Below the pieces are notes generated by a model, which saw only the letters and a program-made list of their open reading frames with translations, was not told the origin of the DNA and searched no databases. A stretch of 64,000 nucleotides of DNA from Acidobacteriota bacterium (lineage in GTDB: Bacteria > Acidobacteriota > Thermoanaerobaculia > Multivoradales > UBA5704). The stretch lies in assembly GCA_040005235.1 (NCBI GenBank), contig JBDTZG010000003.1:64001-128000 (forward strand). The letters run 5' to 3'. Positions within the stretch are counted from its first letter, which is position 1; each line of letters starts with the position of its first letter. Of the stretch, positions 2,667 through 48,841 are shown piece by piece. Both the position numbers and the translations under genes were made by a program.

Positions 2667-4400
2667 TCAAAGTAACTTGGTGCCAATGCCTTGACGGTCG
2701 GCGCCCCGGCGGTGCGCCATGCGCTCGCGGTCGCCCACCGCGATCCGTTCCGCCTCCTCATTGTCCAGGGCGATCCGCCGCGATTCCTCCTCGACCGCTT
2801 CCGCATCGGTGCGCAGGGCCGCGATCTGCGCTTCGAGCGTCACGCGGCGGCGCTCCAGCTCGCGCTGCCGCCGCTCGGCCTCCTGCTTCCTCGTCACCCC
2901 TCCGGCCTGCTCGCGCGCTTCCTGAGCGGCCCGAAGAGAGCCGGTCAGAACACCCTCCGATCCGACATAGACGTCGAGGAGATCGATGCCCTGGTGGGTT
3001 AGACGGAACTCACGGATCTGGTTCGAGTGCTCCATACCCCGGGATTTGAGCACGTAGAGGCCCCGATTGCGCTCGCCGCCCGCCTCGATATGGCGCACCA
3101 GAACCCAGGTATCGACCAGGGAGGAGATCTCCGCCTCGGACCGTTCGAGCGCGCCACCGCCGGAGGTCAGGCTGACCAGGAAGGCAGTGATCCCCTCGGA
3201 CTTGAGGAAGTCGATCAGGCGCACGAGCATCGCCTGCACCTCGACCTCCGCGCCCACGGCGCTGAAGGAGGTGAGCGGATCGATGACCACGACCTGGGGC
3301 CGCCATTCGCGGACGAGCTTGTGGATCGCGACCAGATGCGATTCGAGGCCATGGAGCGAAGGCCGGGCGGATTCGATGCGCAACAGGTCCCGGTCGAGCC
3401 ACCGAGCCAGGTTGATACCGATCGAGCGCATGTTGCGGACGATCTGATGCGCCGATTCCTCGAACGAGAGATAGAGGCACCGCTCTCCGCGCGCGCACGC
3501 GCTGTCCACGAAAGAGACGGCGAGGCTGGACTTACCGGTGCCCGCCATGCCGCTGACCATGATGCTGCTGCCCCGGAAGTAGCCGAGTCCGCCGAGCATG
3601 GCGTCGAGCCGCGGGACTCCCGACGAGATCCGCTCGGCGCTGGCGGCATAATTGAGCCCCATCGAGGTCACCGGCAGCACGGAGATGCCGGTCTCGTCGA
3701 TCAGGAACGGATATTCGTTCGTTCCGTGAACGGTGCCGCGGTATTTGACAATTCGCAGACGGCGGGTCGAAAGCTGGCCGTTGACCCGGTGGTCGAGCAG
3801 GATGACGCAGTCGGCGACGTACTCCTCCAGACCGTGTCGGGTCAGTTGGCCGTCGCCGCGCTCGCCGGTGATCACCGTGGTCATTCCCCGGTCCTTGAGC
3901 CAGCGAAAGAGGCGCCGCAACTCGGAACGCAGGATCGCGTCGTCCGACAGTCCGCCGAACAGGTTCTCGATCGTGTCCAGGACGACGCGCCGAGCGCCGA
4001 TGGAGTCGATGGCCAGCCCGAGGCGGATGAACAGGCCTTCGAGATCGTATTCTCCCGTCTCCTCGATCTGGCTGCGCTCGACGTGAATGGCTTCGACGAG
4101 GAACTTGCCCTCCGCTTCGAGAATGTCGAGGTCGAAACCGAGCGAGCGGACGTTCTGCGTCAGCTCCGCGGCGGTCTCCTCGAAGCTCACGAATACCCCG
4201 GGCTCACCGTGCTCGACCGCGCCGCGGACCAGGAACTCCATGGCGAGCAGCGTCTTGCCGCAGCCGGCGCTGCCGCAGACCAGCGTCGGCCGGCCGCGCG
4301 GCAGCCCCCCGCCGGTAATCTCGTCGAGCCCGCGGATGCCGGTCGCCGCCTTCGGCAGCTCGCGGGACGGCGAGCTGTCACGTTCCAGGGGTTCGCTCAT
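2667..4400 (-). CDS. kaiC: Circadian clock protein KaiC (double ATPase domain, KaiC2-like)
   Basis: Two P-loops (GSAGCGKT, GMAGTGKS), paired EE catalytic residues, EEYVADCVI, ISSLVDTW phosphosite region, KSRGMEHSNQIREF, and a C-terminal coiled coil. Confidence 0.95.
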   Translation of the reverse strand: MSEPLERDSSPSRELPKAATGIRGLDEITGGGLPRGRPTLVCGSAGCGKTLLAMEFLVRGAVEHGEPGVFVSFEETAAELTQNVRSLGFDLDILEAEGKFLVEAIHVERSQIEETGEYDLEGLFIRLGLAIDSIGARRVVLDTIENLFGGLSDDAILRSELRRLFRWLKDRGMTTVITGERGDGQLTRHGLEEYVADCVILLDHRVNGQLSTRRLRIVKYRGTVHGTNEYPFLIDETGISVLPVTSMGLNYAASAERISSGVPRLDAMLGGLGYFRGSSIMVSGMAGTGKSSLAVSFVDSACARGERCLYLSFEESAHQIVRNMRSIGINLARWLDRDLLRIESARPSLHGLESHLVAIHKLVREWRPQVVVIDPLTSFSAVGAEVEVQAMLVRLIDFLKSEGITAFLVSLTSGGGALERSEAEISSLVDTWVLVRHIEAGGERNRGLYVLKSRGMEHSNQIREFRLTHQGIDLLDVYVGSEGVLTGSLRAAQEAREQAGGVTRKQEAERRQRELERRRVTLEAQIAALRTDAEAVEEESRRIALDNEEAERIAVGDRERMAHRRGADRQGIGTKLL

Positions 4401-6785: not shown

Positions 6786-8264
6786 ATGACCGGAACGGAA
6801 CCGTTCGCGACCGCCTGGGTCCTGCTGGGACTCGGGGTACTGCTCGGCCTGTCGGCGCTTTCGAGCCGATTGGCCGGCAAGAGCGGTTTGCCGATCACCC
6901 TGCTGCTGCTCGGCGTCGGCATGCTCGCGGGCTCCGAAGGAATCGGCCATATCGGGTTCGAGGATTATTCGCTCTCGTTCCGCCTGGGTTCTCTCGCCCT
7001 GGTCTTGATCCTGTTCGACGGCGGCCTCAACACCCCCATCGCCTCGGTGAAAAAGGGGCTCGGCCCCGCGGCCGTCCTCGCGACGCTCGGCGTCCTCGGC
7101 ACCGCGTCGATCATCGCGTTCGGCGCGTGGCTGCTCGGCTTCGAACCCCTGCGGGCGGCGCTTCTGGGGGTGGTCGTCTCTTCGACCGACGCCGCCGCCG
7201 TGTTCTCGACCCTTCGCGCGGGAGGAATCCGACTTCCCCACCGCCTGGGCGCGGTGCTGGAGCTTGAGTCGGGGCTCAACGACCCAATGGCGGTGATCCT
7301 GACCACGGCGATCACTTCGATCGCCCTCGGGAAGGAGGTCTCCGGCTGGCACCTGGCCCTGGAGATCCCCGTCCAGCTCGCGGTCGGGGCGGGGCTGGGA
7401 TTCGCGATCGGCCGCGCCGGGCGCTGGCTGCTGCGCCGCGCTCGGCTCAAGGTGAGCGGTCTCTACCCGGCGCTCACCGTGGCGCTCGCGCTGCTCGCAT
7501 TCGCACTCCCCACGCTGTTCTTCGGCAGCGGCTTCCTCGCCGTGTATGTGGCGGCGATCGTCCTGGGCGACGGCAAGCTGCCCCATCGCAACAACCTCCT
7601 GCGGGTCCACGACTCGATCGCTTGGTTCGCGCAGATCGGCATGTTCCTGCTGCTCGGGCTGCTGGTTTTCCCGTCGCGGGTGCTCACCGTGCCACCCCAG
7701 GGCCTCGCTCTCGCGCTGCTGCTCGCGCTGGTCGCCCGGCCGCTGGTGGTCTTTCTGCTCCTGCTGCCGTTCCGGTTCCCGCGCCGCGAGGCGATCTTCC
7801 TCTCCTGGACCGGTCTGCGCGGCGCGGTGCCGATCGTGCTCGCGACCTTTCCGGTGATGGCGGGCCTGCCCGGCGCGCGCGAGATCTTCGACGTCGTCTT
7901 TTTCGTCACTGTGATCAACACCCTCGTTCCGGGGGCGACGATCGCCGCCCTGGCCCGCCGGCTTCGGTTGGCCGCCTCGGAGCCTCCGCCCCCCGAAGCG
8001 GTAGTCGAGATCCACTCCGCGCGACCGCTGGAAGGCGAGACGCTGTCGTTCTATATCGAAGAGGCCGCGGCAGTCTGCGGCGCGGTCATCGCCGACCTGC
8101 CGATTCCGGACTCGGCGGTGATCCTGCTCGTCGTCCGCGGCAACCGAATGATCGCGCCGCGAGGCTCGACGCTGTTCGAGGCAGGCGATCACATCCACCT
8201 GTACTGCGAAGCCGCGGACGCGCCTTTCCTCGGATTGCTCTTCGGTCGGCCGGAGGAAGGGTAG
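6786..8264 (+). CDS. nhaP2: Potassium/proton antiporter (CPA1, NhaP2/CvrA type) with C-terminal TrkA-C domain
   Basis: LFDGGL, SSTDAAAVF, LELESGLNDP, GSGFLAVY and WTGLRGAVPIVLA; RCK-C-like tail. Confidence 0.9.
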   Translation: MTGTEPFATAWVLLGLGVLLGLSALSSRLAGKSGLPITLLLLGVGMLAGSEGIGHIGFEDYSLSFRLGSLALVLILFDGGLNTPIASVKKGLGPAAVLATLGVLGTASIIAFGAWLLGFEPLRAALLGVVVSSTDAAAVFSTLRAGGIRLPHRLGAVLELESGLNDPMAVILTTAITSIALGKEVSGWHLALEIPVQLAVGAGLGFAIGRAGRWLLRRARLKVSGLYPALTVALALLAFALPTLFFGSGFLAVYVAAIVLGDGKLPHRNNLLRVHDSIAWFAQIGMFLLLGLLVFPSRVLTVPPQGLALALLLALVARPLVVFLLLLPFRFPRREAIFLSWTGLRGAVPIVLATFPVMAGLPGAREIFDVVFFVTVINTLVPGATIAALARRLRLAASEPPPPEAVVEIHSARPLEGETLSFYIEEAAAVCGAVIADLPIPDSAVILLVVRGNRMIAPRGSTLFEAGDHIHLYCEAADAPFLGLLFGRPEEG

Positions 8265-8417
8265 GCCCGAGCCCGAAGCAGTAACTATCAAACAAAGCTT
8301 TGGATGCGTCCTTCTCCCCGTCCGCATCCGGCAAGGCTCCGGCACTCCTTTTAAAGGAACGGTTTCCCGAGACTCTCGAACGATTCGGAGTCGTCGCGGA
8401 CCGACCGGGAGGAAGCC

Positions 8418-8570
8418 ATGAGGAAGAAGGCGTTCGACAAGAGCCTCAATCTCCACCGCGAGACCCTGCTGGCGTTGGAGGATTCGACGCTCCCCAAAGC
8501 GCAGGCCGCAGGCGCCGTGACGTCAGCCTGCAAATCCGGCTGGACCTGCTGCAACAGCACCTGCTTCTGA
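8418..8570 (+). CDS. 50-aa RiPP (lanthipeptide-like) precursor, absent from the ORF track
   Basis: GGGAGG RBS, then MRKKAFDKSLNLHRETLLALEDSTLPKAQAAGAVTSACKSGWTCCNSTCF*: LxLxRETL leader and a Ser/Thr/Cys-rich core. Confidence 0.8.
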   Translation: MRKKAFDKSLNLHRETLLALEDSTLPKAQAAGAVTSACKSGWTCCNSTCF

Positions 8571-8763
8571 GCCAGTGAGTCGACCGGTCCGCGGTCCGCG
8601 GTGCAGGCTCTCGGCCGGCACCGCACTCGGGTCTCTCCGGTGGGCCTTGCGGCTGGCCTCGATTTTCGCCACGCTCTGCGGCTCGCGGTCGAAGGGAAGG
8701 GATCACCCCAAAAACAGTCGGCACCCCTCCGGTCGGCGGGGCGCACATGATCTGTCTGCCGGT

Positions 8764-8976
8764 TCAGCAACCGCAATCGGTCGCGTAGCCGCTATAGCAG
8801 AAGCAATGGGTGAAGAAGCATTCGGAGTAGGTACCACAGGTCCAATTGCAGCCGCTGTCGCCTGAGCAGAATGCCCTTTCGCGGCTCTCCTCAGTGCCGC
8901 CCACGGCAGCACCCAGGGTCTCGGATCGGATGTTGGCCAGAGTCTCACGGGACAGGCGGAGTCGCTTCGTCTTCAC
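8764..8976 (-). CDS. 70-aa RiPP (lanthipeptide-like) precursor with 8-Cys core
   Basis: AAGGAG RBS and GTG start; MKTKRLRLSRETLANIRSETLGAAVGG/TEESRERAFCSGDSGCNWTCGTYSECFFTHCFCYSGYATDCGC*. Confidence 0.82.
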   Translation of the reverse strand: MKTKRLRLSRETLANIRSETLGAAVGGTEESRERAFCSGDSGCNWTCGTYSECFFTHCFCYSGYATDCGC

Positions 8977-9097
8977 GTCCAGTCTCCTTTTCAGAAGGTC
9001 CAACGCGGTCTATGCGCGAGAGCTTAGCGCAGAGAAGGTGAGAATGCGGCGGGCCGGGCTCGCGACGAATGAAGCTACCGCGCCGTAGACCCTGGCG

Positions 9098-10075
9098 ATG
9101 ATTCGCTCCCTCCTTCGCATCTTCTCCACCGTGGTCGGAATCCTCGCGCTGGCTTGGCTCATGATTTTCTGGTTGGTTCGCCAGCCGATGCGCGCGGCGC
9201 CGCGGCGAATCGAGAGACATGCCGACCCTCGCCGCTTACGCGACGATGTCCAGGTGCTGGCCCGAGATTTGGTTCCACGCGACGTGGCCCATCCGGAGAA
9301 CCTCGACCGCGCCGCCCTCTATATCGCCAGGCAGTTCGAGCTGGCCGGGCTGGCTCCGGAATTCGAGCGCTACGAGGCGCGCGGCGGGAAGTACGCCAAT
9401 GTGGTGGCGAGGATCGGTTCGGGACGATCCCCGCTGGTGATCGGCGCGCATTACGATGCCTTCGGCGAATTCGGTGCGAATCCCGGAGCCGACGACAACG
9501 CGAGCGGTGTCGCGGGGCTGCTGGAATTGGCGCGGCTGATCTCGGGCCACAAGATTCCGGGCGGCCTCGAGTTGGTGGCATTCTCGACCGAGGAGCCGCC
9601 GTTCTTCGGCTCGCGTCAGATGGGCAGCGCCGTCCATGCCGACCGGATGCTCGCGAGCGATCGCCGCTCTCGGGGGATGGTCTCGCTCGAAATGATCGGT
9701 TACTTCACCGAACGGCAGCCCTGGCCGAGCGCCCTGCTCAGAGCGTTCTATCCGACTCGCGGCGACTTCGTGATGCTCGCCGGGCGGAGAAGCGATCGAG
9801 CGTTGATCCGCGCGCTCAAGCCGGGGTTTCAGGGGGGGTCATCGGTTCCGATGGTGAGTTATGCCGGCCCCTTTGTGGGCGGCCTTGATGCTTCAGATCA
9901 CGTGAGTTTCTGGGATCGCGGCCTGCCGGCGGCCGTGCTGACTGACACTTCCTTTCTCCGCAACCCGCGCTACCACGCCTCGGACGATACTTCCGGATCT
10001 CTCGATTACCCGCGCATGGCCGCAGTGGTCGACGGCCTCGCGAACGCGGTACTCGGTCCCGTCGCACCGCCTTGA
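9098..10075 (+). CDS. M28 family metallopeptidase, membrane anchored
   Basis: VIGAHYDA, PGADDNASG, FSTEEPP, LEMIGYF, SDHVSFW and YHASDDT; N-terminal TM segment. Confidence 0.92.
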   Translation: MIRSLLRIFSTVVGILALAWLMIFWLVRQPMRAAPRRIERHADPRRLRDDVQVLARDLVPRDVAHPENLDRAALYIARQFELAGLAPEFERYEARGGKYANVVARIGSGRSPLVIGAHYDAFGEFGANPGADDNASGVAGLLELARLISGHKIPGGLELVAFSTEEPPFFGSRQMGSAVHADRMLASDRRSRGMVSLEMIGYFTERQPWPSALLRAFYPTRGDFVMLAGRRSDRALIRALKPGFQGGSSVPMVSYAGPFVGGLDASDHVSFWDRGLPAAVLTDTSFLRNPRYHASDDTSGSLDYPRMAAVVDGLANAVLGPVAPP

Positions 10076-35459: not shown

Positions 35460-36359
35460 CTAGCGCTCGTCCTTTTCTTTCCGCTCCTTCGGGGCGCCGC
35501 CGGTCAACCGCTCGGCGTACTCAGCGAGCGGACCGAGACCTACCTCCGCACGGCGCCGATCGACGTGCTCGGCATCCTCGATCGGAAACGGTTCGAGCCT
35601 ACCCGCCACCTCGCGAAACTGCGTGCCGTAAACCTGCGGCTCGCCCGCGGCCATCCGCACCCGGTCGGTCAGATAGGCGAGCTGCGAGGGCGCGGCGTCG
35701 CCGCGGGCGAGCGCTTCGCCCAGCCGCGTGAGGCAGAGGCGCTGAAAGACCGGGTCGGAGTCCGCGTGCTGCGCCAACAGGAACGCGGCCTGGGCGCCAT
35801 CGGCTCCGACGAGGGCCCGGCCGGGCCAGCCGCGTTGCGCCACGATGTCGCGAAACCGCGCGAGGTTCCGGCCATCGACTTCGGCGACCCGCTCGGCCTG
35901 TTCGAGCGTCGGCACATCGCCGAGCGCGGCGCGCGCGGCCTGGTCGTCGGCCGTCATACGCAGCAGCTCGTCGTGGAGCACGCGGTCGCCGAGCGCGGCG
36001 AGGCGTTCTTCCTCGCGTCGGCGGACGGCCTCGACGGCGGGCGCCCAGCGCGGATCGGCCGTCAACGAGGAAAGATCGGAATCCTTCAGAAGGTGCTCGG
36101 CATTCGCGTAGCCGCGCGCGACCGCGAGATCGAGGAATCGGAAGGCGGCGTCCCGATCGCCCGTGCGCGCGAACGCGCAGGCGGCGTTGTAAGCATCTTC
36201 CGGCCGCGAGGCGCCCGCGGCGACGGCGGCGGCGAACAGCTCGCCCGCGGCGGAGAACTCCTCGCGGCGGAACGCGTTGCGCGCTTGCCGGTTGAGGTCG
36301 CTGGGATCGGTGGACAGGGTCATCAGCCAGAAGAGGGCGGCGAAAAGGCGCGGCGTCAC
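35460..36359 (-). CDS. TPR + DUF6624-like protein
   Basis: AYNAACAFAR...DSDLSSL TPR end; DQAAR, GWPG..LVG.DGAQAAFLLAQHAD, AYLTDRV...QVYGTQ and VDRRRAEVGL. Confidence 0.82.
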   Translation of the reverse strand: MTPRLFAALFWLMTLSTDPSDLNRQARNAFRREEFSAAGELFAAAVAAGASRPEDAYNAACAFARTGDRDAAFRFLDLAVARGYANAEHLLKDSDLSSLTADPRWAPAVEAVRRREEERLAALGDRVLHDELLRMTADDQAARAALGDVPTLEQAERVAEVDGRNLARFRDIVAQRGWPGRALVGADGAQAAFLLAQHADSDPVFQRLCLTRLGEALARGDAAPSQLAYLTDRVRMAAGEPQVYGTQFREVAGRLEPFPIEDAEHVDRRRAEVGLGPLAEYAERLTGGAPKERKEKDER

Positions 36360-36481
36360 GACGGCTCCCCAAGGGTTCCGGATCCGAAATCCTATCCCGG
36401 GGCCGAAGTGCGGCGCCAGGGTTTGGGACCCCGGGCCTCTTCGGTCCGAACGAGCCCGCGTTGGACCTGGACGAATAGCGA

Positions 36482-36800
36482 CTACGGCGCCAGCGCCCAG
36501 AGCTCCGTGCCGGCGTGGGTGTCATACCAGGGAAAGAAGATCCGCTGGCCGGCGCGAACGAAGTCCCGGCGATCCGTGCCCTGAAAAAGTCCGAGCCGGC
36601 GCACGGTGCCGGCCCGCGTGCCGTCCCCGCCGATCCCGGCGAAGAAAAAGCCTCGGTTGCCGGCCGGCATGAGAGTTCGCGGAAAAGAACCGCTGTCCTG
36701 AGCGGTGTTCAGGTCGGCGACCAGAGAGGTCCCCGCGACGGTACCGTCCGAAACCCAGGGCTCCGGCCCGTGAACCTCGTCGGTCAGACGAAAAAACGCG
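36482..36800 (-). pseudogene. 3' remnant of an ELWxxDGT-repeat protein
   Basis: HGPEPWVSDGTVAGTSLVADLN...GSFPRTL and terminal AGTELWAL. One middle repeat is collapsed and there is no plausible start or signal peptide. Confidence 0.7.
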
Positions 36801-37142
36801 GCCCCCGGCGGAGGCGCCGTAGGAAACGCCAAGAGACGAGGCGAACGGATCGTCTTCACCTACGAGCCGACGGGTACCGCCTGCCGGACTCACGCCGACG
36901 AACCAGAGCCGACCGCCTTCCACGGCTCCGAACGATTCCACACCCCGGGCAGGCACCGGGGCAGACGTCGATCCAGCGCGATCCCGCCGGCGTACCGTCG
37001 ACACGCGCAAGCCTTCGAAGTGTGTGAAATCGATATTTTCACATTTTTTGTGCTCAAAGCCCCGCGTGTGATCTTTTGCGGTCCCCTTGCCGCCACCTCG
37101 AATTCGCGCCAGGATGGGTCCAACATTCGAGGAGGTCCGCCC

Positions 37143-39599
37143 ATGCCTTCGCTCGCACCGGCCGTTCGTCAGTTGTTCCGCCGTCCGCCGATCGGCGCCA
37201 CTTTGGCGCTCGCCGCCGGACTCGCCGGTTCGCTCGTGCTGCTCGCGGTGGCGGACGCGATGCTGTTTCACCCTTTGCCTGGGGTGGTGCATCCGGAACG
37301 GTTGTTTACCATCGCGCAGCCGAATCTTTCCTACCTGTCGCTACGCGATTTCACCGCGGCGGCAGAGGCGCGCGGCACCGGGATCGAAGGGTTCGCCGGC
37401 TATTCCCACCGGTCGTTCGCGCTGGAGATCGATGGCGAGCCGGTGCGCCTGCTAGGCGCTGCGGTCGTGGGAAATTACTTCCCGCTGCTCGGCGCGCACG
37501 CCGCAGAAGGCCGCCTGCTCGGCTCGATCGACGACGCGCCGGACGCGGCGCCCGCGGTCGTTCTCTCCTCCGCGCTCTGGCGTTCCCGATTCGGTGGCCG
37601 GGCCGACGTAGTAGGCCGACCGGTCCGCCTGAACGGCGTGACGTTCGAGGTCGTGGGCATTGTCGCGCCGCCGTTCCGCGGCTTGACGCGCGAGCACGAC
37701 CCGGCGCTTTGGGTCTCGGCTTCGGCCTGGATGCGCTCCGCCCCGCGTTCGTTCGCCAGCCTTGGGCTCGGCACGCGCAGCTGGAGCTGGCTGCGCGCGT
37801 TCGGCCGCCTGGCGCCCGACGGCAATTTCGCCCGCGCGACGGCGGTGCTGAACGCCGAGGCGAAGCGGCAGGAGAGCGCCTATCCGGACGACACGCGAAA
37901 AGGCTTCGAGGTCGAGCTGGCTCCCGCCGAGCGTTTCGCCGCCGGATTCGGCTCAGCGCGCACGGCCAACACCGCCGAGGGCGCGCTGGGCGCCCTGGTC
38001 GCCCTCTTGGTGGCGCTCTCGGTCGCGAGCGCCGCGCATTTGTTCCTTGCCCGCGGCGAGGCGCGCCGCCGTGAGCTTTCGACCCGTCTGGCGCTCGGCG
38101 CCAATCGGCGGGCGCTCGCCGCCCTGCTGCTCGCCGAGCCGATCGCGGCTTCGCTCGCCTCCGCGGCGCTTGCGGTCCTGGCGGCACGCGGCCTGCTCGC
38201 CCTGCTCGCCGAGTGGTACCTGCCCGGCGGAATGCGCCTGGGAGATCTCGGCTTGGCCATCGACCCGCGCGTGGCGGCGTCCGGCTTCGCGCTCGCCCTG
38301 TTCGCCGGGCTCGCCGCGGGATGGCTCCCCGCGCGACGCCTGCTCGGCACCGATCTCGCCCGCGCGCTCGCGGCCCGCTCGATCGGCGATCGAACCGCCT
38401 CGCGCAGCCGCCGCGGTCTCGCCGCGGCCCAGGTGGCGGTCGCCCTCGTGCTGGTCGCGGCGACTGCGCTCGCGGCCCGAGCGCTCTCCCGCGCGGCGCA
38501 GGTCGAAACCGGCTTCGATGGCGAAAAAATAGGCTTTGCCACGCTCGACCCTGGGCTCGCGCGACTGCCCGGCGAACAGGTGGCGGCGCTCCGCGGCGAA
38601 GCGCTCGCGGCGGTCCGAGCGCTACCGCAGGTGGCGAGCGCCTCCCTCGTCTCCTTGCTGCCGCTCGACCACGGCGCCGATAGCGAGACGTTGTCGATCG
38701 AAGGGTATATTCCGGCGCCCGACGAACAGGTGGAGGCGGAGATTCAGCTCGTCGGCCCCGGAGCGCTGTCCACCCTTGGCACCCGCATGGTCGCCGGCCG
38801 CGAGCTGGACGAGCGCGACCGCCAAGGCACGGAACGCACGGCGGTCGTCTCGCGCTCTTTTGCCAACAGGTATTTCTCCGCCAGGGGGGCCGGCAAAGGT
38901 ACCGGCCGCCATGAAGCGCTCGGAGCCCGGCTCGAAATGTTCGCCGGCCCGGCAACGATCGTCGGCATCGCGGAAGACGTCCACGCCCACGGGCTCGGAG
39001 AGATGCAGCCGCCCGCCGTCTATCTGGCGTTCGCCCAGCTCCCCGCCGACAAGGCGCCGGAGAGCTTCTCGGTGATTTACCGCGCCCGCACCTCCGCGGC
39101 CGAAGCCCTACCCGAAGTCCACGCCGCGCTGCTCGCCGCGGCCCCCAGCGCACCGATCTCGCCGGAAGGTACGTTTGCCGACCTCTACGCCGCAACCGTC
39201 GCGCCGCAACGCCTGGCCGCCGCCCTGTTCGGCCTTTTCGGAGGGATCGGAACCCTCCTCGCCGCGAGCGGCCTCTACGGCCTCGTCGCCTTCGCCGCCG
39301 CCGCCCGAACCCGCGAGATCGGCCTGCGCATGGCGCTCGGCGCCCGTCCCTCGGGCATTCTTCGCCTGGTCGCGGCCGACGCCCTCCGGCCGGCGATCCT
39401 AGGCACGCTGATCGGAGCGGCGCTCGCTGTACCGCTCGCGTTCGCCGCCCGCGGCGTCGCCTACGGCCTCGAAGGCTTCGATCCTCTGGCGCTAGCAGTC
39501 GCCGCCGCGATTCTCCTCGCCGCCGCAGGGCTGGCGGTGATCCGCCCGGCACGGGCGGCGGCGAAAGCCGATCCGACCGCGGCGCTGCGGGCGGAGTGA
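37143..39599 (+). CDS. ADOP-family duplicated MacB/FtsX ABC permease (no adjacent ATPase)
   Basis: Two MacB-PCD/FtsX halves (RRRELSTRLALGA; RTREIGLRMALGA), terminal DPTAALRAE, and GAGGAGG RBS. Confidence 0.9.
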   Translation: MPSLAPAVRQLFRRPPIGATLALAAGLAGSLVLLAVADAMLFHPLPGVVHPERLFTIAQPNLSYLSLRDFTAAAEARGTGIEGFAGYSHRSFALEIDGEPVRLLGAAVVGNYFPLLGAHAAEGRLLGSIDDAPDAAPAVVLSSALWRSRFGGRADVVGRPVRLNGVTFEVVGIVAPPFRGLTREHDPALWVSASAWMRSAPRSFASLGLGTRSWSWLRAFGRLAPDGNFARATAVLNAEAKRQESAYPDDTRKGFEVELAPAERFAAGFGSARTANTAEGALGALVALLVALSVASAAHLFLARGEARRRELSTRLALGANRRALAALLLAEPIAASLASAALAVLAARGLLALLAEWYLPGGMRLGDLGLAIDPRVAASGFALALFAGLAAGWLPARRLLGTDLARALAARSIGDRTASRSRRGLAAAQVAVALVLVAATALAARALSRAAQVETGFDGEKIGFATLDPGLARLPGEQVAALRGEALAAVRALPQVASASLVSLLPLDHGADSETLSIEGYIPAPDEQVEAEIQLVGPGALSTLGTRMVAGRELDERDRQGTERTAVVSRSFANRYFSARGAGKGTGRHEALGARLEMFAGPATIVGIAEDVHAHGLGEMQPPAVYLAFAQLPADKAPESFSVIYRARTSAAEALPEVHAALLAAAPSAPISPEGTFADLYAATVAPQRLAAALFGLFGGIGTLLAASGLYGLVAFAAAARTREIGLRMALGARPSGILRLVAADALRPAILGTLIGAALAVPLAFAARGVAYGLEGFDPLALAVAAAILLAAAGLAVIRPARAAAKADPTAALRAE

Positions 39600-39647
39600 G
39601 GGATTAGGAGCCGCAGACACTGGACGCCCTGCGGTACTCTTGGAGTG

Positions 39648-40331
39648 ATGAACGAGGAGATCCGGGACTGGGAGCGCTTGTTGGCCGCCGAACGCCATCT
39701 CCAGGCGCTCATTCCCACCGCTGTCCTGGTGGGCGGCACGGCGGCGGCGCTGCATGCCGGTCATCGTATTAGCCTCGACGGCGACCATGTGGTGACCGAT
39801 CTGCGCGAACGCTTTGACCAAGTCCTATCGGACCTCGAAGCGATCTCCGGCTGGAAAACCAAGCGGGTACGACCGCCCGTCCTCATCCTCGGTAGGCTCG
39901 ACGGAATCCTCACCGGGATCCGCCAGCTGCGTCGCGTCCGGCCTCTAGAAACAGAGGAGGTGGCGGGCTTGCGGGTTCCAACTCTCGCCGAGATGGCGCG
40001 GATCAAGGCCTGGCTGTTGGTGACCCGAGTCACCACTCGCGATTATCTCGACACCGTCGTGCTTTTCGAGCGCCTCGGCGAGCAGGGAACGCGCAGCGCG
40101 CTCGCCGATCTCGATGAAATCTATCCGCAAAAAAACGGCGCATCGGTGCTCACCGAGGTCATCGAGCGTCTGGGCGCCGCCCAGCCGGCCGACGCGGCGC
40201 GAATCGAACTCTCCGGATATCGCGGTTTACAAGCTCCGTGGAACGATTGGCACTATCTGGCGGGGCGGGGCCGCGATTGGGCGCAAACACTCTCTACGAT
40301 GATCTTGAAGCGCGACGAAGAACTCCAATGA
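39648..40331 (+). CDS. AbiEii-like nucleotidyltransferase (type IV TA toxin-like)
   Basis: LVGGTAAALHAGHRISLDGD (GGT...HRxSxDxD), K.W and RDYLD. Confidence 0.75.
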   Translation: MNEEIRDWERLLAAERHLQALIPTAVLVGGTAAALHAGHRISLDGDHVVTDLRERFDQVLSDLEAISGWKTKRVRPPVLILGRLDGILTGIRQLRRVRPLETEEVAGLRVPTLAEMARIKAWLLVTRVTTRDYLDTVVLFERLGEQGTRSALADLDEIYPQKNGASVLTEVIERLGAAQPADAARIELSGYRGLQAPWNDWHYLAGRGRDWAQTLSTMILKRDEELQ

Positions 40332-40624
40332 GCTTCGACCTATCCCGCTCGCAGGCCTTGTGGAACCGGAACAGCCTCAACCTCGAAAGCGACGAGGTGT
40401 TGACGCAGATCCTCGATCGGGGCGAGATAGAAGCCTGGCGGGAGATCTATCGCTTGGCGTCCGGTTCCGAGCCGTCGGCGGTGGCACTACGGAAGCGAAT
40501 CGTCCACATCTGCCGTACGGTCCCGATTGGCTTTCCGCATTTCTTCCTTGCCGCCATGGGCTCTCTCGGCGAACGGCTCGAGCCCTATCCGGAAGTACCG
40601 CCGCCGATGGACGATATTGCCTGA
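40328..40624 (+). CDS. Small protein coupled to the nucleotidyltransferase, putative antitoxin
   Basis: ATGA overlap; ALWN...QILDRGEIEAWREI resembles small partners of such NTases (DUF6922-like, from memory). Confidence 0.65.
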   Translation: MSFDLSRSQALWNRNSLNLESDEVLTQILDRGEIEAWREIYRLASGSEPSAVALRKRIVHICRTVPIGFPHFFLAAMGSLGERLEPYPEVPPPMDDIA

Positions 40625-40740
40625 CGTCACGATTCTCCTTTCCAGTGCCGTTGGGTTAAATGCAAACCCAAAGCCATCATTCGACCGCCTGGCCTATTCT
40701 GCGCGTACTATTCAATCGCGGGGCGACCTCAGGAGGATTC

Positions 40741-41718
40741 ATGCGCGGATGCCTCAAGATTGCGTTCTTTGGCATCGTACTTCCGCTGATCGTATTCGCG
40801 GGTCTCGGGTTTTGGGCACTTCGTCACAAGTTGCCGACCGAGCCACAATTGCCCGGCAAGGTCGAGCGCGGCGCGCTTGAGCATGGGAGACACAGGCGAA
40901 CGTGGATCGCGTATGTCCCCACGAAGCCGCAGGCGCATCCGGCGCTGGTGTTCGCGCTGCACGGCTCGATGGGCACGACGGAGCAGGCGCGCCAGGTCTA
41001 CGGATACGACTTCGATCGGCTCGCGGAAGAGCATGGTTTCATCGCGGTCTATCCGCAGGGGTACGAAGGCCACTGGAACGACTGCAGAGTGAAGGGGCCG
41101 TTCGCCGCGAAGATCGAGAACGTCGACGACGTGGGCTTCCTCCATGCGCTCGTCGATCGCCTCGTGAAGGATCATGATGCCGACCGCGAGCACGTCTACG
41201 TGACTGGCGTATCGAATGGCGGCGCGATGACGATTCGTCTCGCTCTGCAGACGCCGGGTTTCGCGCGCGCGTATGCCGCCGTCGTCGCCAGCATGCCCGC
41301 GCCGGAGAACCTCGCCGTCACGCCGAAGGGCGAGCCGGTGTCGATACTCCTCATGAACGGCACCGCCGACCCTTTCAATCCGTGGGACGGCGGAGATGTC
41401 GTGCTTTACGGCGTGTATGGAAACCGCGGGCCCGTCCTCTCCGCGCAGGCGAGCATCGACTACTTCCTCAAGCTCGACGGACTCGGCGGTCCTCCGGCAA
41501 CGACGCAATTTCCCGACACCGACGCGAACGATGGCAGCACCGCTGAAAGCCAACGCTGGACCGCCCCCGGCAAACGCAACGTAACGCTTATCAAGATTCA
41601 AGGCGGCGGTCACGCCCTGCCCCATCCCGCCACGCAAGGCCCGCGCTTGCTCGGCAGCTCCAACCGTGACTTCCACGCCGCGAACGAGATTTGGGACTTT
41701 TTCCAGCAGGCACCGTGA
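40741..41718 (+). CDS. LpqC/PHB-depolymerase-family esterase
   Basis: LVFALHG, VYPQG...WND, DDVGFL, TGVSNGG nucleophile, NGTADP and GGGH; AGGAGG RBS. Confidence 0.88.
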   Translation: MRGCLKIAFFGIVLPLIVFAGLGFWALRHKLPTEPQLPGKVERGALEHGRHRRTWIAYVPTKPQAHPALVFALHGSMGTTEQARQVYGYDFDRLAEEHGFIAVYPQGYEGHWNDCRVKGPFAAKIENVDDVGFLHALVDRLVKDHDADREHVYVTGVSNGGAMTIRLALQTPGFARAYAAVVASMPAPENLAVTPKGEPVSILLMNGTADPFNPWDGGDVVLYGVYGNRGPVLSAQASIDYFLKLDGLGGPPATTQFPDTDANDGSTAESQRWTAPGKRNVTLIKIQGGGHALPHPATQGPRLLGSSNRDFHAANEIWDFFQQAP

Positions 41719-41759
41719 CGAGGTAACCGCTACTACGCGCCGGGCCATCGGAAGACATC

Positions 41760-42140
41760 TCCGAATCAGCCGAAGAGATCCTCCGGCCGGCCGAAGAGAC
41801 TCCCCCATCCGCCCGGAGATCTCCACCGCCGATCGGGAACGTCTACCACGATTAAAACTCTCCCCCGCGGTCTCCGGAAGAGGCCTTCCGAAGATCCGAA
41901 GAGCGCTCCGCATCGCCCGAAGGGAGCTCCCGATCTTCCGGAGAGGCTCACGGTCTTTCCGAAGTCAGCTCCGAATGGCCGGAAGATGGTTCCCGGACGC
42001 CGGTGACCCTTCCGGACGTTCCGGCATTCTCTTCGGTCGGCCGGAAGTCGCCTTCGGACCGTCCGAAGAGCCCTTCGAAGGGGGCGGAGACGGCTCCGGT
42101 CGGGCGCGCCGGGCAACGGCTCGACCGGCCCGAAGATTCC
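41760..42140. repeat. Degenerate 21-bp-period repeat tract
   Basis: ccgaag/cggaag recurs every 21 nt, e.g. ccgaagagcgctccgcatcgc|ccgaagggagctcccgatctt|ccggagaggctcacggtcttt|ccgaagtcagctccgaatggc. Boundaries approximate. Confidence 0.65.
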
Positions 42141-42304
42141 GGCCGCTTCGGTGCCGAGCTGGTGCTCGGCGGTCCCGGGAACGGCGTTTGCGGATGATAT
42201 CGCGCTGTGCGGTCGGGGATTTCTTCGGACTCTGGATCGGGCGCGAGTGGCTCCGGCGAGAGAGTCTAGGCTCCGGAACGGTTCGCGGGAGGCAGAACCG
42301 GCTC

Positions 42305-42697
42305 TCACACCGCGGCGGATTTCGTGATCAGCTCTTCCAGCACCCCAAGATCCACGTCAGCCAACCGCTTGATGTAAAGGCACAGCCCCTTACTTCGCTT
42401 GTGCTTGCCCAACCGCGCGAGGAGATCGTCGTCGAGGCTGCTCAGGTAGAGCGTCAGGTCCGACTTGCGGGGTGAGAAACCAACCACGGGCCAGTCGTTC
42501 TCTTTGCCGTTGGCGTATTTCATCCGGTAGGAGCCGAAGCCGACGATCGCCGGCCCCCACATGATCGCCGGTCTGCCGGTTACTTTTTTGAAGAGTTTCA
42601 CGAGCGTTCGGCAGTCGTCGCAGCGCGCTTCCGGTTCGAGGCGATCGATGAAGGCGTCGACGCTTTCGCCGGTCGGCCGGGTCTTGGGTTCGGCCAT
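42305..42697 (-). CDS. DUF1801 (YdhG-like) protein
   Basis: KTRPTGESVDAFI, MWGPAIVGFGSY, GFSPRK, LGKHK and CLYIKRLADVD. Confidence 0.88.
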   Translation of the reverse strand: MAEPKTRPTGESVDAFIDRLEPEARCDDCRTLVKLFKKVTGRPAIMWGPAIVGFGSYRMKYANGKENDWPVVGFSPRKSDLTLYLSSLDDDLLARLGKHKRSKGLCLYIKRLADVDLGVLEELITKSAAV

Positions 42698-42713
42698 GTC
42701 CTGCTCCACTCCC

Positions 42714-43979
42714 CTAGTTCGCGATCGCGATCGCGGCGTTGACGAAGATCGGCGGTCCGTCGTCCTGGTTGCCGGTCGTGTTCTGCGGCACCGTGAAGCG
42801 GTCGACCGCGCCCTTCTGGAAGGCGACCGCCATGCTCGAGCCGCCGTAGCTGAAGCGGCCCAGCTCTTGGCCTTTCACCACCTGATCTCCGACTTTGACC
42901 TCGAAGCTCACCGAGGAGATCTCGGTGATGCCGATCGGGATGACGCAGACCATGCCGATTACCGGATCGTCGCTTTCGATGAACATCAGGCCGCGCGTGT
43001 TGACCGACGCCTCGTAGCCTTGCGAATAAGTGGACGCGGTCGGATCGAAGCCGGCGGATTCGGCGTTGCTGAACATCAAGCCGTTCACCTTCTCGACTCG
43101 GACCACGCGGCCGGCGATCGGTGCACGCCAGCGATGATAGTCGGAGCCCGAGAGGAACGACTGGAAAACGTCTCCGCCGACGAACCGATCGACGTAGTGG
43201 CCGCACAATATGTCGTGGAGCGAGTAGGGCTGCCCTTTGAGCCAAAACTGCGCGCTCGCCTGGACGCTCCGCTCCCAGGTGACGACCGTGCCGTCGTTCG
43301 GCGAGACGATCACCCGCGGATCGTTCGGCGCCGAGATCGGCCGCAGCTCGGGTTTGATCTGGCGGTGGAAATAGGCATTGAACGATTCGAAACCCCAATG
43401 CGGCGCGGCGCGGTCGGGGATCACGAACTCGATCAGCCTGTTCTGCTCATAGGCGGGCTGCGACAGCCAGCCGAATTCGCCCTCGTTGATCACGTAGAGG
43501 CTCGCCGGGCTGTCGAGGAAGTGGCACCATTCCTCAAGGATTGCGCGCAGCGCGTCGTTGAACGCGGGGTAGCGGAACGCGGCCTCCCCGGACGGCGTCA
43601 TCATCATGTAGGTAAACAGGGTCGAGACGGGGAACGAGTTCTGCTTCGAAGGATCCCGGTTGTATGCCGGCGCCGAGCGGACGATCCAATCGAGCGCTGC
43701 GAGCATCTCGGACACGTCGTCGATCTGTTTGTGCTGGGCCGGAACCTGATCGATCATCTTGGTTACGTACATGCGGGCAACGCCGTCGCGCTCGATCAAC
43801 CGCGCAAGGGCCGAAACGGAGGGCGAGACGATCCCCATGCCCCTCGCCGGCGCGATCTCCTTTTTGAGATTGACCTGCCATTCGTCGACCGCCGCCCGCT
43901 TCTTCGGAAGATATCCGGCGACCCTGCCGAACGAGTTCCGATATCGCTCGTCGATCGACCGCTCCAGCTCGTCGCTCAT
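42714..43979 (-). CDS. Phosphatidylserine-decarboxylase family, PsiD-like soluble pyruvoyl decarboxylase
   Basis: SFNAYFHR, SPND, KGQPYSL, DYHRWRAP, EISS and KGQELGRFSYGGSS self-cleavage motif; N-terminal helical domain with W..FLDSPAS. Confidence 0.88.
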   Translation of the reverse strand: MSDELERSIDERYRNSFGRVAGYLPKKRAAVDEWQVNLKKEIAPARGMGIVSPSVSALARLIERDGVARMYVTKMIDQVPAQHKQIDDVSEMLAALDWIVRSAPAYNRDPSKQNSFPVSTLFTYMMMTPSGEAAFRYPAFNDALRAILEEWCHFLDSPASLYVINEGEFGWLSQPAYEQNRLIEFVIPDRAAPHWGFESFNAYFHRQIKPELRPISAPNDPRVIVSPNDGTVVTWERSVQASAQFWLKGQPYSLHDILCGHYVDRFVGGDVFQSFLSGSDYHRWRAPIAGRVVRVEKVNGLMFSNAESAGFDPTASTYSQGYEASVNTRGLMFIESDDPVIGMVCVIPIGITEISSVSFEVKVGDQVVKGQELGRFSYGGSSMAVAFQKGAVDRFTVPQNTTGNQDDGPPIFVNAAIAIAN

Positions 43980-44050
43980 GGGTGCCTCTCCGTCGCTGTT
44001 GTCCTGCGGAAGCTATCAGAGGGAGTCCCTCTTCCTCGAAGCCGTCAGGA

Positions 44051-44380
44051 TCAGTCCACGGGAAACACCGCCTGCAACCGCCAGAAACTGCGTTCGGGCG
44101 GGCCGACGAACAGCGGCCCGGCGCTGGCCTTGAAGGCGAGCAGGTGCGGCGTTTTGAGGTGCGGACCGAGGTAGGCCTCGCGGCTGGTCCATTCTTCGAA
44201 CAGGAAGATGCGCGCCGGGTCCGCCGGATCTTGGTAGAGCCGAATGGAGAAGCAATCGGGCTCGGTGGCGACGACGATCGCGATCAGCTCCGTGAGCGCG
44301 CCGACGGCTTTGTCGATCTGGTCGGACTGGGCTTTGTAGGTGATGGCGACAGTGGTGACGGAGGTAGACGTTTGGGTCAT
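44051..44380 (-). CDS. ABM/YgiN-family putative quinol monooxygenase
   Basis: EPDC...YQDPADPARIFLFEEW...HLKTPHL. Confidence 0.85.
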   Translation of the reverse strand: MTQTSTSVTTVAITYKAQSDQIDKAVGALTELIAIVVATEPDCFSIRLYQDPADPARIFLFEEWTSREAYLGPHLKTPHLLAFKASAGPLFVGPPERSFWRLQAVFPVD

Positions 44381-44392
44381 TTGGGTCTCCAG

Positions 44393-45379
44393 CTACCGGC
44401 AGGCGTAAGCCGACTTGGCGAGAGCCGCGGCGTAGATCGCGTGGGCTTCCGCCGTCGGGTGGGGATCTTCGTGGCTGACCCAGAAGCGCTTGCCAGGACC
44501 GGGAGGGAAGGCGTGGGAGGGATCGATGACCTCGAAGCCGTTGGCCTTCGCCAGCTCGGCGACGCGGCCGAACAGACCCTTGAACGGGCCGAAGTCTTTC
44601 GGCTCGTGCAGCTCGGGAAGCAGTAGCACGGTGCCGGGAATGCCGTCCTCGCGGAGCATCTGGCCGAGGTGGGCCATCTCCCGCTTCGTCCCTTCCCAGC
44701 CGGGCAAGCCGTCCTTGTAGAGACCTTGGTAATAAGGCTCATAGTGCTGGAACGGTCCGGAGAGGCGTTGCAGCCGCGCCGAAGCGAGCGAGATCAGGGC
44801 GGAGTTCCAGAAGAACGGGTTGAAGTTTGGCACCGCGTCCGGCTCGGCGTCGTTATAGGAGTAACCGACGATCACCCATTTCGGCTTTAGAGGCCGCAGC
44901 CGCGCCTCGTATCGTTTCACCTCCATGGAGGTGTTGCAGTTGCCGATCCCGGCGTTCAACACCGTCGCCCGCGGCGCCCCTTCCTTCGGGCACTGGTCGG
45001 CGAGCACCCGTTCGAGCTGCGAGGGAAAGGTGTCTTTTTCCGCCGCCCCCCAGCCAAAGGTCACCGAATCGCCGAGCGCCACTACCAGCCGGTCGTTCGG
45101 GGTCCGCGCCGCTTCGGTCGCCGGATCGGCGCGCCGCAGGCCCTTGTCGTCGGTGCGGACGGTGACCCCCATCAGCAGCTCGTCGGCGTTCGGCCGGTGC
45201 TCTTCGACCACGCCGGGAACGTCGGATTCGATTTTGATCGCCTTGGCGTAGCGCCACATTTCGACGTCGAACACGTGGAGGGAGTATTTGGACAAGACTC
45301 GCAGAGCGACTTCCGCAACTCCGAACGTCAGGAGCAGGCTGATCGACAGGACGAGCAGACTTTTGAGCAGCTTGTTCAC
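44393..45379 (-). CDS. SGNH/GDSL hydrolase family protein, membrane anchored
   Basis: LGDSVTFGWG, VLNAGIG, YSYND and DPHP; N-terminal TM with AEVALR. Confidence 0.88.
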   Translation of the reverse strand: MNKLLKSLLVLSISLLLTFGVAEVALRVLSKYSLHVFDVEMWRYAKAIKIESDVPGVVEEHRPNADELLMGVTVRTDDKGLRRADPATEAARTPNDRLVVALGDSVTFGWGAAEKDTFPSQLERVLADQCPKEGAPRATVLNAGIGNCNTSMEVKRYEARLRPLKPKWVIVGYSYNDAEPDAVPNFNPFFWNSALISLASARLQRLSGPFQHYEPYYQGLYKDGLPGWEGTKREMAHLGQMLREDGIPGTVLLLPELHEPKDFGPFKGLFGRVAELAKANGFEVIDPSHAFPPGPGKRFWVSHEDPHPTAEAHAIYAAALAKSAYACR

Positions 45380-45659
45380 CGGGCACCTCGGAGGGGGCGG
45401 CGGCAAACCAGCCACCCGGGACAGTTCCAGGACCGGCGAACGATAGCTCAAGTCGGGGGGCGAGGGCGGGGCGCCGTCTCGTTCGCCTCCTGGGGCAGAA
45501 AGATCGGGGGGACCCGGAAGAACCGGGCCCCCTTATCAACGTCAACGAGTGCTACCCCTTATGTGCCTATACCTACGGGCAAGCCGGTCCGGGCGTTTAG
45601 GTGACCCCTCGCTTCCGGCAGGAAAAAACCGGGATCGTTCCGGCGATATGATCCGCTCC

Positions 45660-46415
45660 ATGCCGCTCACCGTCGCCACCTGGAACGTCAACGGCGTCCG
45701 CGCCCGGGCCGAGCAGGTGCTCGGATATCTCGCCCGCGACCGCCCGGATGTCCTTTGCCTGCAAGAGATCAAGGCCACCGCTGTGCAAGTTCCCGCGCCG
45801 CTTGCCGAGCACCCGGACTACTGGTCGTTCTGGCACGGGGCGGGCGGCTATTCGGGAGTCTGCCTGCTGCTCGCGAAGGCGCGTTTCCCCGAGCTGCCGC
45901 GGTTCGAGCATCCGTCGTTCGACATGGAGACCCGGGTGGTCACCGCCGAGGCGGAGGGAATGTTCTTCGCCTCGATCTACGTGCCGAACGGCGGCAAGGA
46001 CTACGCGGCGAAGATCGCGTTCCTGGAAGGGATGCGCAATTGGGCCGGAACGCTCCGCGAGAGAAGCCGGCCGACCTTCCTGTGCGGCGATTTCAACATC
46101 GCGCGCGAGGAGCGCGACGTCCACCCGAAAGAGAGGAAACCCGACCAGATCGGCACGCGCCCCGAGGAGCAGGCTCTCCTCGAAGGCATCCTCGGCCACG
46201 GCTTGACCGATGTCGGCCGCGCGCTCGATCCCGACAACGACAACCTGTTCACCTGGTGGGCGCCCTGGCGCAACCTGCGGCAGCGGAACATCGGCTGGCG
46301 CATCGACTACGTCGCGGCGAGTCACGCAGCCGCCTCGACCGCGACCCGGAGCGGAGTCCTCGCAGACTACGGCACGAGCGACCACGCGCCGGTGGTGGCG
46401 GAGTTCGCGATGTAA
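45660..46415 (+). CDS. xth: Exodeoxyribonuclease III / AP endonuclease
   Basis: ATWNVNG, LCLQEIK, GYSGV, SIYVPNG, CGDFNIA, FTWW, GWRIDY and SDHAPV. Confidence 0.95.
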   Translation: MPLTVATWNVNGVRARAEQVLGYLARDRPDVLCLQEIKATAVQVPAPLAEHPDYWSFWHGAGGYSGVCLLLAKARFPELPRFEHPSFDMETRVVTAEAEGMFFASIYVPNGGKDYAAKIAFLEGMRNWAGTLRERSRPTFLCGDFNIAREERDVHPKERKPDQIGTRPEEQALLEGILGHGLTDVGRALDPDNDNLFTWWAPWRNLRQRNIGWRIDYVAASHAAASTATRSGVLADYGTSDHAPVVAEFAM

Positions 46416-46498
46416 CCGATTCTTGCGTCATTCCTCTGTAAGAAAGGGAGCGATAGGCTCCGGTTCGTCGAACGGTTTCGATCTCGAAGGAGATCTCC

Positions 46499-47482: not shown

Positions 47483-47626
47483 CGATCGACGGAGGAGGGC
47501 TACCCTTTCAGGTGTCCTCCTCGGCAGGGAATCCTACTTCGAAGCTGGCGCGTCAATCCGACGGAGTTCGAGCCTCTCCCTCTAGAGCCCGTGATAATCT
47601 CAGAACTGTCTACGGAGGCTTCCAAG

Positions 47627-47836
47627 ATGAATCTCACCCTCGAATGCGAGCGCGAAGACGACGGCCGCTGGCTGGCCGAAGTGGTCGATCTACCCGGTGC
47701 TCTCGCATACGGCGGTTCGGCGGATGATGCGATGGCCAAGGCTGAAGCACTTGCGTTGCGCGTCCTGGCGGAGCGGCTGGAACACGGCGAAAGCCGCCCG
47801 ATCGAAATCAGCATCTCGCTCCCCGCCGCCGCATGA
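47627..47836 (+). CDS. hicB: HicB-family antitoxin (short form, no DNA-binding domain)
   Basis: EREDDGRWLAEVVDLPGALAYG...A; GGAGG RBS. Confidence 0.88.
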   Translation: MNLTLECEREDDGRWLAEVVDLPGALAYGGSADDAMAKAEALALRVLAERLEHGESRPIEISISLPAAA

Positions 47837-48045
47837 GCCACTGGCCTTCGGCCAAGGCCAAGAATGTTCTGGCTGCTCTGATCAAGCTCGGCTGGCAGAT
47901 CAAACGCCAGACGGGCTCCCATCGCACGCTGTCCCGCAAAGGCTGGCCCGATTTCGTTTTTGCCTTCCATGATGGCGACGAACTTGGGCCCCGGATGCTC
48001 GCACGCATCGCCAAACATGCGGGGCTTACACCCGCGGATCTGTAA
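47833..48045 (+). CDS. hicA: HicA-family mRNA interferase toxin
   Basis: LGW..KRQTGSHRTL...FAFHDGDELGPRMLARIAK; ATGA overlap with hicB. Confidence 0.9.
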   Translation: MSHWPSAKAKNVLAALIKLGWQIKRQTGSHRTLSRKGWPDFVFAFHDGDELGPRMLARIAKHAGLTPADL

Positions 48046-48235
48046 CGATCAGACCCTATCCCGCTGTCGAGGTGAGGGAAGAGCTACAAGCCAAGGCGAG
48101 GGATTCCGGCTTGTGGGAGACAGTGCATTTCTGTACACCATGTCGGCATTTTACGGCGTAAAATGCCGACAGCGATCGCCATTGCCCAAGTTCCTCTCCG
48201 CGCTCGCGGAGGGGACGCTCTGGCCCTGAGAAGGG

Positions 48236-48813: not shown

Positions 48814-48841
48814 ACGCAGCCAGCCGCCCGGGAGAACCGCC

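Follow-up and report, generated by a model that had tools for sequence, protein, structure and literature searches.

We analyzed a 64,000-nucleotide stretch of DNA (the window; positions 64001 to 128000 of contig C18) from the genome of a Thermoanaerobaculia-like soil bacterium of the phylum Acidobacteriota (genome G000; 6.22 Mb in 140 contigs, 66% G+C, reported to be 100% complete), in which two small convergent open reading frames (ORFs), here called ORF1 and ORF2, encode Cys-rich peptides with similar leaders. Coordinates given without a prefix are window positions. Both ORFs are real genes under purifying selection, and they most likely encode precursors (LanA) of class I lanthipeptides. 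The genome encodes one full-length LanB, three LanC proteins, and one C39-ABC exporter, all of them outside the window, and we consider it probable, at roughly 70%, that these proteins mature ORF1 and ORF2 as class I lanthipeptides in trans.

Two conserved precursor genes and their leader type

An earlier note on this DNA, made from the sequence alone, had described two tail-to-tail small ORFs, each with a good ribosome-binding site (RBS) and each encoding a leader (KSLNLHRETL in ORF1 and KRLRLSRETL in ORF2) that ended in AAG or VGG, followed by a core with 4 or 8 Cys residues and with the tripeptide WTC in each. All of these features hold, and the ORF coordinates and the RBS spacings were confirmed (Table 1). 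An in-frame TTG at 9003 would provide an alternative start for ORF2 and lengthen its product to 79 amino acids; position 8976 is the likely start, because the orthologs begin at the corresponding GTG or ATG.

Homologs of both ORFs were found in public genomes and metagenomes, with nine others for ORF1 (54 to 86% identity) and four for ORF2 (66 to 93% identity). In both alignments the core was the best-conserved part of the gene, and the variable part was the stretch just upstream of the predicted cleavage site. Invariant among the 10 ORF1 homologs were the LxLHRETLLALE box of the leader and the core motif TSACKSGW-x-CC, where x is Thr or Ser; within the core, the four Cys residues, Thr35, Ser36, and Ser40 did not vary and position 43 was always Thr or Ser. 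All eight Cys residues of the ORF2 core were invariant in its five homologs. The ORF1 leader is predicted to be cleaved before Val34; in more distant homologs the leader ends in AGG and is followed by VTSAC, and ORF1 itself has AGA. Compared to its ortholog in G007, a genome of the same genus, ORF1 carried 8 synonymous and 7 non-synonymous changes, and ORF2 carried 16 synonymous and 5 non-synonymous changes compared to its ortholog in G002, also of the genus, which gave ratios of non-synonymous to synonymous substitution rates (dN/dS) of 0.23 and 0.07, respectively. These results demonstrate that ORF1 and ORF2 are real genes under purifying selection. One homolog, P0003, carries the precomputed family accession PF28317.

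The leaders of both peptides fit the pattern LxLx(K/R)x5(L/I), with the recognition box reading L10-N-L12-H-R14-ETLLA-L20 in ORF1 and L6-R-L8-S-R10-ETLAN-I16 in ORF2. A section of Walker et al. 2020 (PMC7268733) describes the class I LanAs of Bacteroidetes as having LxLxKx5L instead of FxLD, with many Gly-Gly (GG) ends and with a C39 protease often in the cluster; both window leaders match this LxLxKx5L/GG description, with Arg replacing Lys. A Pfam search of both peptides gave no match at E ≤ 10, and the sole match to either ORF in the Pfam and NCBIfam libraries was to NF038153 (NCBIfam, "class I lanthipeptide," lant_leader_L1a), for which the curated cut-off is 22 bits; no bacteriocin, Nif11, or nitrile-hydratase-type leader family was matched at E ≤ 10. 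When NF038153 was compared to all of G000, it gave 24 matches at E ≤ 1, all of them within the family of 39 ORFs described below, and four of these paralogs passed the cut-off (27.4, 27.3, 22.9, and 22.3 bits). Because both window ORFs miss the cut-off and their chemistry is predicted, the case for placing them in LanA is built on the motif, on the paralogs, and on linkage in relatives. Taken together, these features suggest that ORF1 and ORF2 are most likely class I LanA precursors of the LxLxKx5L/GG type, which agrees with the LxLxK/R class I leader that the earlier note had recognized.

A dispersed precursor family, its probable enzymes, and its relatives

A hidden Markov model (HMM) of the leader was built from 34 seeds from G000, both window ORFs included, and run on all 150,577 small ORFs (25 to 130 amino acids, every start). 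Thirty-nine distinct ORFs scored from 30 to 49 bits, and the next best ORF scored 12.9 bits. The consensus leader in the family alignment was MKKxxxKLxLxRETxxxLxxxxxxxxxGxx. The 39 members are spread over 31 contigs, with six on C18, two of which are those in the window. None is on C66, the contig that carries LanB and the exporter; three directly adjoin a LanC gene, a fourth is 3.7 kb away from such a gene, and the remaining 35 had no LanC among the two called genes on each side. The expectation that a six-frame scan would uncover further leader-sharing ORFs, and that lanthipeptide enzymes would be present elsewhere in the genome, was thus borne out. A Pfam scan of 127 genes around the 39 members (two called genes on each side) showed mixed housekeeping content and no recurrent maturase; near some members, possibly by chance, there were peptidases (M28, M12B, and S8), MacB-type permeases, and toxin-antitoxin genes. 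One member (C24:59259-59351, equivalent to L019:7001-7093) stops right after its leader, whose sequence is very similar to the leader of intact member C121:19168-19338, and it is probably a truncated paralog.

The enzymes encoded on the other contigs are intact by the measures applied. In LanB, the domain matches covered positions 1 to 648 of the 649 in Lant_dehydr_N and 1 to 253 of the 255 in Lant_dehydr_C, and the protein matched the structures of MibB and NisB. In an alignment to 8byk, the LanC encoded on C35 retains WCYG, CHG, and HG motifs, and the C39 domain of the exporter keeps the Q..DCG..C motif and the histidine of NHF.

The composition of the cores was examined in the 38 that are intact, with cleavage sites predicted by a simple rule. 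These cores contained 17.2% Cys and 23.9% Ser plus Thr, compared to 0.78% Cys and 10.4% Ser plus Thr over all called proteins, and in all 38 the number of Ser plus Thr residues was equal to or greater than the number of Cys residues. A distinct Ser/Thr donor on the N-terminal side could be assigned to every Cys in 37 of the 38 cores, compared to a mean of 13.6 and a maximum of 22 cores in 500 within-core shuffles. Relative to Cys, Ser/Thr was enriched at position -5 (z of 5.8) and at position -1 (z of 5.2), and the number of Cys residues was odd in 22 of the 38 cores. These features of the predicted cores suit thioether rings better than disulfide pairs, although the evidence is indirect. Two lipid II-binding motifs known from lanthipeptides, SxxxCTP[GS]C of the nisin type and Tx[ST]xEC of the mersacidin type, had no match in the 38 cores.

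We then compared G000 with 60 relatives (61 genomes in all) by using the leader profile at a threshold of E ≤ 0.001. Matches were found in 34 genomes, with 1 to 71 copies each, and none were found in the other 27; all eight genomes in the genus of G000 were leader positive, with 14 to 52 copies. A match to LanB (PF04738) was present in all 34 leader-positive genomes compared to 10 of the 27 leader-negative genomes, and at a best E ≤ 1e-100 in 32 of 34 compared to 1 of 27, these being plain counts because related genomes are not independent. In each of five genera (g3, g5, g6, g7, and g8), some members have both features and others lack both. Compact clusters with the same leader were present in four relatives (Table 1), three of them including an exporter and two of them a LanC. 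The G000 exporter was 55 to 56% identical to the exporters embedded in these clusters, and the G000 LanB was 49 to 51% identical to the cluster LanBs. As sequence evidence, the relatives and NF038153 provide support that is independent of the HMM derived from G000 itself.

Table 1. Features of the window, of the rest of genome G000, and of clusters in relatives (aa, amino acids; nt, nucleotides)
Feature	Location	Strand	Description and evidence
RBS of ORF1	8407..8412	+	GGGAGG, 5 nt upstream of ATG; read from sequence
ORF1, lanA-like precursor gene 1	8418..8570	+	50 aa, ATG start; ORF list, leader HMM, homologs, dN/dS
ORF1 leader	8418..8516	+	aa 1-33, LNLHRETLLAL box (LxLxRx5L), Gly-Ala end; alignments
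ORF1 core (predicted)	8517..8567	+	17 aa, 4 Cys, 6 Ser/Thr; alignment of 10 homologs
Intergenic spacer	8571..8763		193 bp, between both stop codons; ORF list
ORF2, lanA-like precursor gene 2	8764..8976	-	70 aa, GTG start; ORF list, leader HMM, homologs, dN/dS
ORF2 leader	8896..8976	-	aa 1-27, LRLSRETLANI box, Val-Gly-Gly end; alignments
ORF2 core (predicted)	8767..8895	-	43 aa, 8 Cys, 10 Ser/Thr; alignment of 5 homologs, residue counts
RBS of ORF2	8984..8989	-	AAGGAG (CTCCTT on + strand), 7 nt upstream of GTG; read from sequence
LanB, single full-length gene	C66:135688-139065		1125 aa; between glycine-cleavage/SUI1 genes and ABC importer
LanC, 1 of 3	C8		Beside M1 peptidase
LanC, 2 of 3	C35		Directly after two family precursors; lower-G+C stretch
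LanC, 3 of 3	C115		Directly after one precursor
C39-ABC exporter, single gene	C66:91766-94153		HlyD/GAF partner
Cluster in relative	G039		HlyD-PCAT-lanA-LanC-LanB
Clusters in relatives	G024 and G030		PCAT-lanA-LanB
Cluster in relative	G037		LanB-lanA-lanA-LanC-LanC

Proposed maturation in trans and competing explanations

In the mechanism that we propose, the LanB encoded on another contig would recognize the common leader box and dehydrate Ser and Thr residues of the core, after which one of the three unlinked LanC proteins would add Cys thiols to the dehydrated residues to form thioether rings. The C39-ABC exporter, together with its HlyD/GAF partner, would then cleave at the Gly-Gly-type site to release the leader and would export the product. 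All three steps would take place in trans for the approximately 38 intact precursors, whose genes are dispersed through the genome. Binding of LanB to the leader, dehydration, cyclization, the cleavage site, export, and biological activity are all parts of this mechanism that we infer from the genes.

Several results weigh against this proposal. There is no LanB, LanC, or exporter in the 64 kb of the window: as the earlier note had stated, its 45 called genes included no Pfam match to LanB, LanC, LanM, radical SAM, YcaO, or C39, and the genome-wide matches were on other contigs. No match to LanM (PF13575) was found in G000, an absence that is weakly shown, as the same search gave none in 14 control genomes. 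The scores of the window ORFs against NF038153 (18.6 bits, E of 0.0015, for ORF1 and 12.4 bits, E of 0.14, for ORF2) both lie below the 22-bit cut-off, and their scores with the leader HMM (38.7 bits for ORF1 and 37.5 bits for ORF2) are partly circular because the seeds came from G000 and included both ORFs. Among the relatives, G041 has a strong LanB with no leader matches, and G018 and G022 are leader positive with LanB only as adjacent pieces; in addition, kinship among the 61 genomes means that they are not independent samples. Finally, the cyclase first paired with ORF1 and ORF2 may be gone, because the G000 paralogs are only 40 to 42% identical to the LanC found beside the orthologs of these genes in G007.

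The locus in G007 has the order exchanger gene, ORF1 ortholog, MacB/FtsX permease, MFS transporter, third family precursor, and LanC, followed by the ORF2 ortholog on the opposite strand. When window positions 8200 to 9200 were compared to the G007 contig by blastn, approximately 86 bp (8676-8761) were found to replace a 6.1-kb cassette of G007. The pair is therefore an orphan in G000, since the G007-type LanC cassette is absent from between the two genes, through either loss here or gain in G007. In G002 the MacB and MFS genes are kept beside ORF2 and the M28 peptidase gene, with no LanC at that place, and in G001 the two precursor genes lie on different contigs and the orientation of ORF2 to the M28 gene is reversed. 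This history is the starting point for the alternative that survives best, although we regard it as unlikely: that ORF1 and ORF2 were once served by the LanC/transporter cassette and have been stranded, so that they are now unmatured or unexpressed and decaying. The absence here of the G007 cassette and the intermediate state of G002 favor such decay, as do the C24 member that already ends right after its leader and the lack of a sigma-70 motif in a scan of positions 8200 to 9150 that is uninformative for this phylum; that scan gave no terminator either. Both ORFs are nevertheless intact with good RBSs, and their dN/dS values are well below 1, though the cassette may have been lost only after the greater part of that history. 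Orphan status is also the rule in G000, as is clear from the 35 members with no nearby LanC, and the ORF1 homologs in two more distant metagenome-assembled genomes likewise lacked LanB and LanC in the scanned neighborhood of 14 genes. LanB, the three LanC proteins, and the exporter, moreover, are still intact in G000.

Even less likely, in our judgment, is that both products are unmodified double-glycine peptides, such as disulfide-rich bacteriocins or signals, that are cleaved and exported by the C39-ABC protein and carry no thioethers. Their Gly-Gly-type leader ends, the presence of one C39-ABC exporter that is catalytically intact by motif and has an HlyD partner, and the even number of Cys residues in ORF1 (4) and ORF2 (8) are what such peptides would show. 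The LxLxRx5L box, however, is the kind found in class I lanthipeptides and is matched by NF038153, no bacteriocin family was matched in Pfam or NCBIfam, and the family tracks LanB over the 61 genomes and adjoins LanB or LanC in relatives. The placement of Ser/Thr on the N-terminal side of Cys far above chance and the odd Cys numbers in 22 of the 38 cores also argue against disulfide pairing. Class II double-glycine bacteriocins with ComA/PCAT1 exporters do resemble the system described here in having a Gly-Gly-type site, and the G000 exporter matches ComA (8hf7) and PCAT1 (4ry2) over the full length; they differ in that the N-terminal half of the leader is here a lanthipeptide recognition box and in that the family is linked to LanB and LanC.

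Modification by a YcaO or radical SAM enzyme rather than by LanB and LanC, as in another class of peptides made by the ribosome and modified after translation (RiPPs), is very improbable: G000 does have one YcaO gene (C120:2935-4182) and one radical SAM gene approximately 1.8 kb from the family member on C58, and Cys/Ser/Thr-rich cores would also suit azoline formation, but the YcaO gene has unrelated neighbors (a cyclase, a kinase, and a P-domain protein) and no leader-family ORF on its contig, no recurrent YcaO or radical SAM gene was seen among the 127 neighbor genes (no genome-wide SPASM/radical SAM search was made), and in relatives the family is found linked to LanB, LanC, and the exporter. 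YcaO as the maturase was set aside on the basis of that unrelated neighborhood.

Relation to known systems and neighboring genes

The closest likeness to the leaders is found among LxLxKx5L/GG class I precursors, which are of the Bacteroidetes type, include the pinensin family, and correspond to NF038153; these share a basic N terminus, the LxLx(K/R)x5L box, and the GG-type end. Bacteroidetes-type systems also have a C39 protease-exporter, a full-length LanB, a separate LanC, and Cys/Ser/Thr-rich cores. Unlike those systems, the one described here is in an acidobacterial host, has Arg for Lys in the box, includes window ORFs that score below the HMM cut-off, and has dozens of precursors apart from the enzymes, whereas there a few precursors lie inside one cluster.

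For prochlorosins and SyncA of marine picocyanobacteria, parts of the published accounts (PMC10783134, PMC9872173, and PMC7268733) describe one enzyme with many precursors that have a common leader and unrelated cores and whose genes, in many cases, are distant from that of the enzyme. The arrangement in G000 can be read as a class I analogue of this arrangement, in that a would-be single enzyme set would serve many shared-leader precursors with unrelated cores located away from the enzyme. The two differ in that prochlorosins and SyncA depend on a single bifunctional LanM (ProcM or SyncM) and a Nif11-type leader, whereas G000 has a tRNA-dependent LanB, separate LanC proteins, and another leader, with no LanM match (a weakly controlled result) and with individual cores that are conserved between related genomes. 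The earlier note had proposed a dispersed combinatorial library of hypervariable precursors matured in trans. The dispersion was upheld by the 39 ORFs and by the location of the enzymes elsewhere, and maturation in trans is the reading we favor; hypervariability did not stand at the level of orthologs. "Combinatorial" fits the set of paralogs and not each locus, because the cores are the best-conserved part of the genes among orthologs.

We lean slightly toward a broader interpretation, in which one LanB in soil Thermoanaerobaculia would serve tens of unrelated cores (14 to 52 per genome in the genus and as many as 71 across the family) whose genes are scattered singly. In this interpretation, purifying selection would keep every core conserved in its own right, which would point to distinct functions for many of the peptides and not to a random library. 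Antibiotic, signaling, and other roles are all possible for these peptides. We found no description of scattered class I precursor sets in Acidobacteriota in the literature, subscription papers being mostly outside the search; the relevant parts of PMC8692599 concern other RiPPs, and those of PMC13083261 treat acidobacterial lanthipeptides of classes III and II.

If this interpretation is correct, a LanB and a few LanC proteins acting on approximately 40 unrelated cores would be naturally substrate-tolerant class I enzymes and would be useful for peptide engineering; to date, accounts of such a one-to-many arrangement deal with class II enzymes, among them ProcM and SyncM. A further consequence would be that tools requiring a precursor to be near an enzyme strongly underreport the lanthipeptides of Acidobacteriota and that cluster-based mining misses most of the genes. 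In G000, a LanC gene is the direct neighbor of only 3 of the 39 precursors and LanB is near none of them, and many genes of the family are shorter than 60 codons and are easily left unannotated.

Several features of the regions around the precursors were also recorded. An M28 peptidase gene (9098-10075, + strand) is the divergent neighbor of ORF2 both here and in G002 (L055:3384-4367), and it adjoins ORF2 in G001 as well; a second M28 gene (L037:8330-10720, on contig C121) lies 1 kb from the precursor on C121. The M28 peptidase could carry out N-terminal trimming after removal of the leader, or the adjacency could be a coincidence. Large MacB/FtsX-type permease genes are located near precursors or LanC genes at 37020-39599 (+ strand) in the window, at L016:8236-11076 (C18), at L009:6773-9238 (C35), and at L052:4769-7372 (G007). 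A role of these permeases in export or immunity is possible; the adjacency may also be due to chance, because a tblastn search of G000 with the permease of G007 yielded 35 alignments.

Genes for HicB, BrnT, PIN, Unstab_antitox, and Uma2 proteins adjoin several members of the family (L014, L015, L017, L022, L030, and L034), a hint that variable, island-like regions are where many of the members are located. Five of the 39 members are within 1 kb of a contig end (C11:720-899, C22:344-526, C90:378-584, C53:28225-28413, and C29:10343-10519), perhaps by chance; the assembly may break there from repeats or mobile DNA beside the members. On C35, the stretch from 36000 to 53000 (L009) holds a LanC with three precursors at approximately 60% G+C, compared to 66% for the genome, and has a PIN-domain gene and a gene for a 1036-amino-acid reprolysin-like/fn3 protein nearby; this stretch is possibly a horizontally acquired island. 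In the relatives G024 and G030, the LanB frames (L057:4968-9587 and L058:4601-9223, respectively) include approximately 420 to 490 codons with no Pfam match upstream of the LanB domains, which represent either a spurious extension of the ORF in high-G+C DNA or an uncharacterized N-terminal addition.

Elsewhere in the window there are genes for a HicA toxin (47591-48045, + strand), preceded by an 81-amino-acid gene with no Pfam match, and for a protein of the "Disulph_isomer" family (63524-63958, - strand). The window also encodes a KaiC-like ATPase (2667-4400, - strand) and a BlaI/BlaR1-type repressor-sensor pair (48584-51054, + strand).

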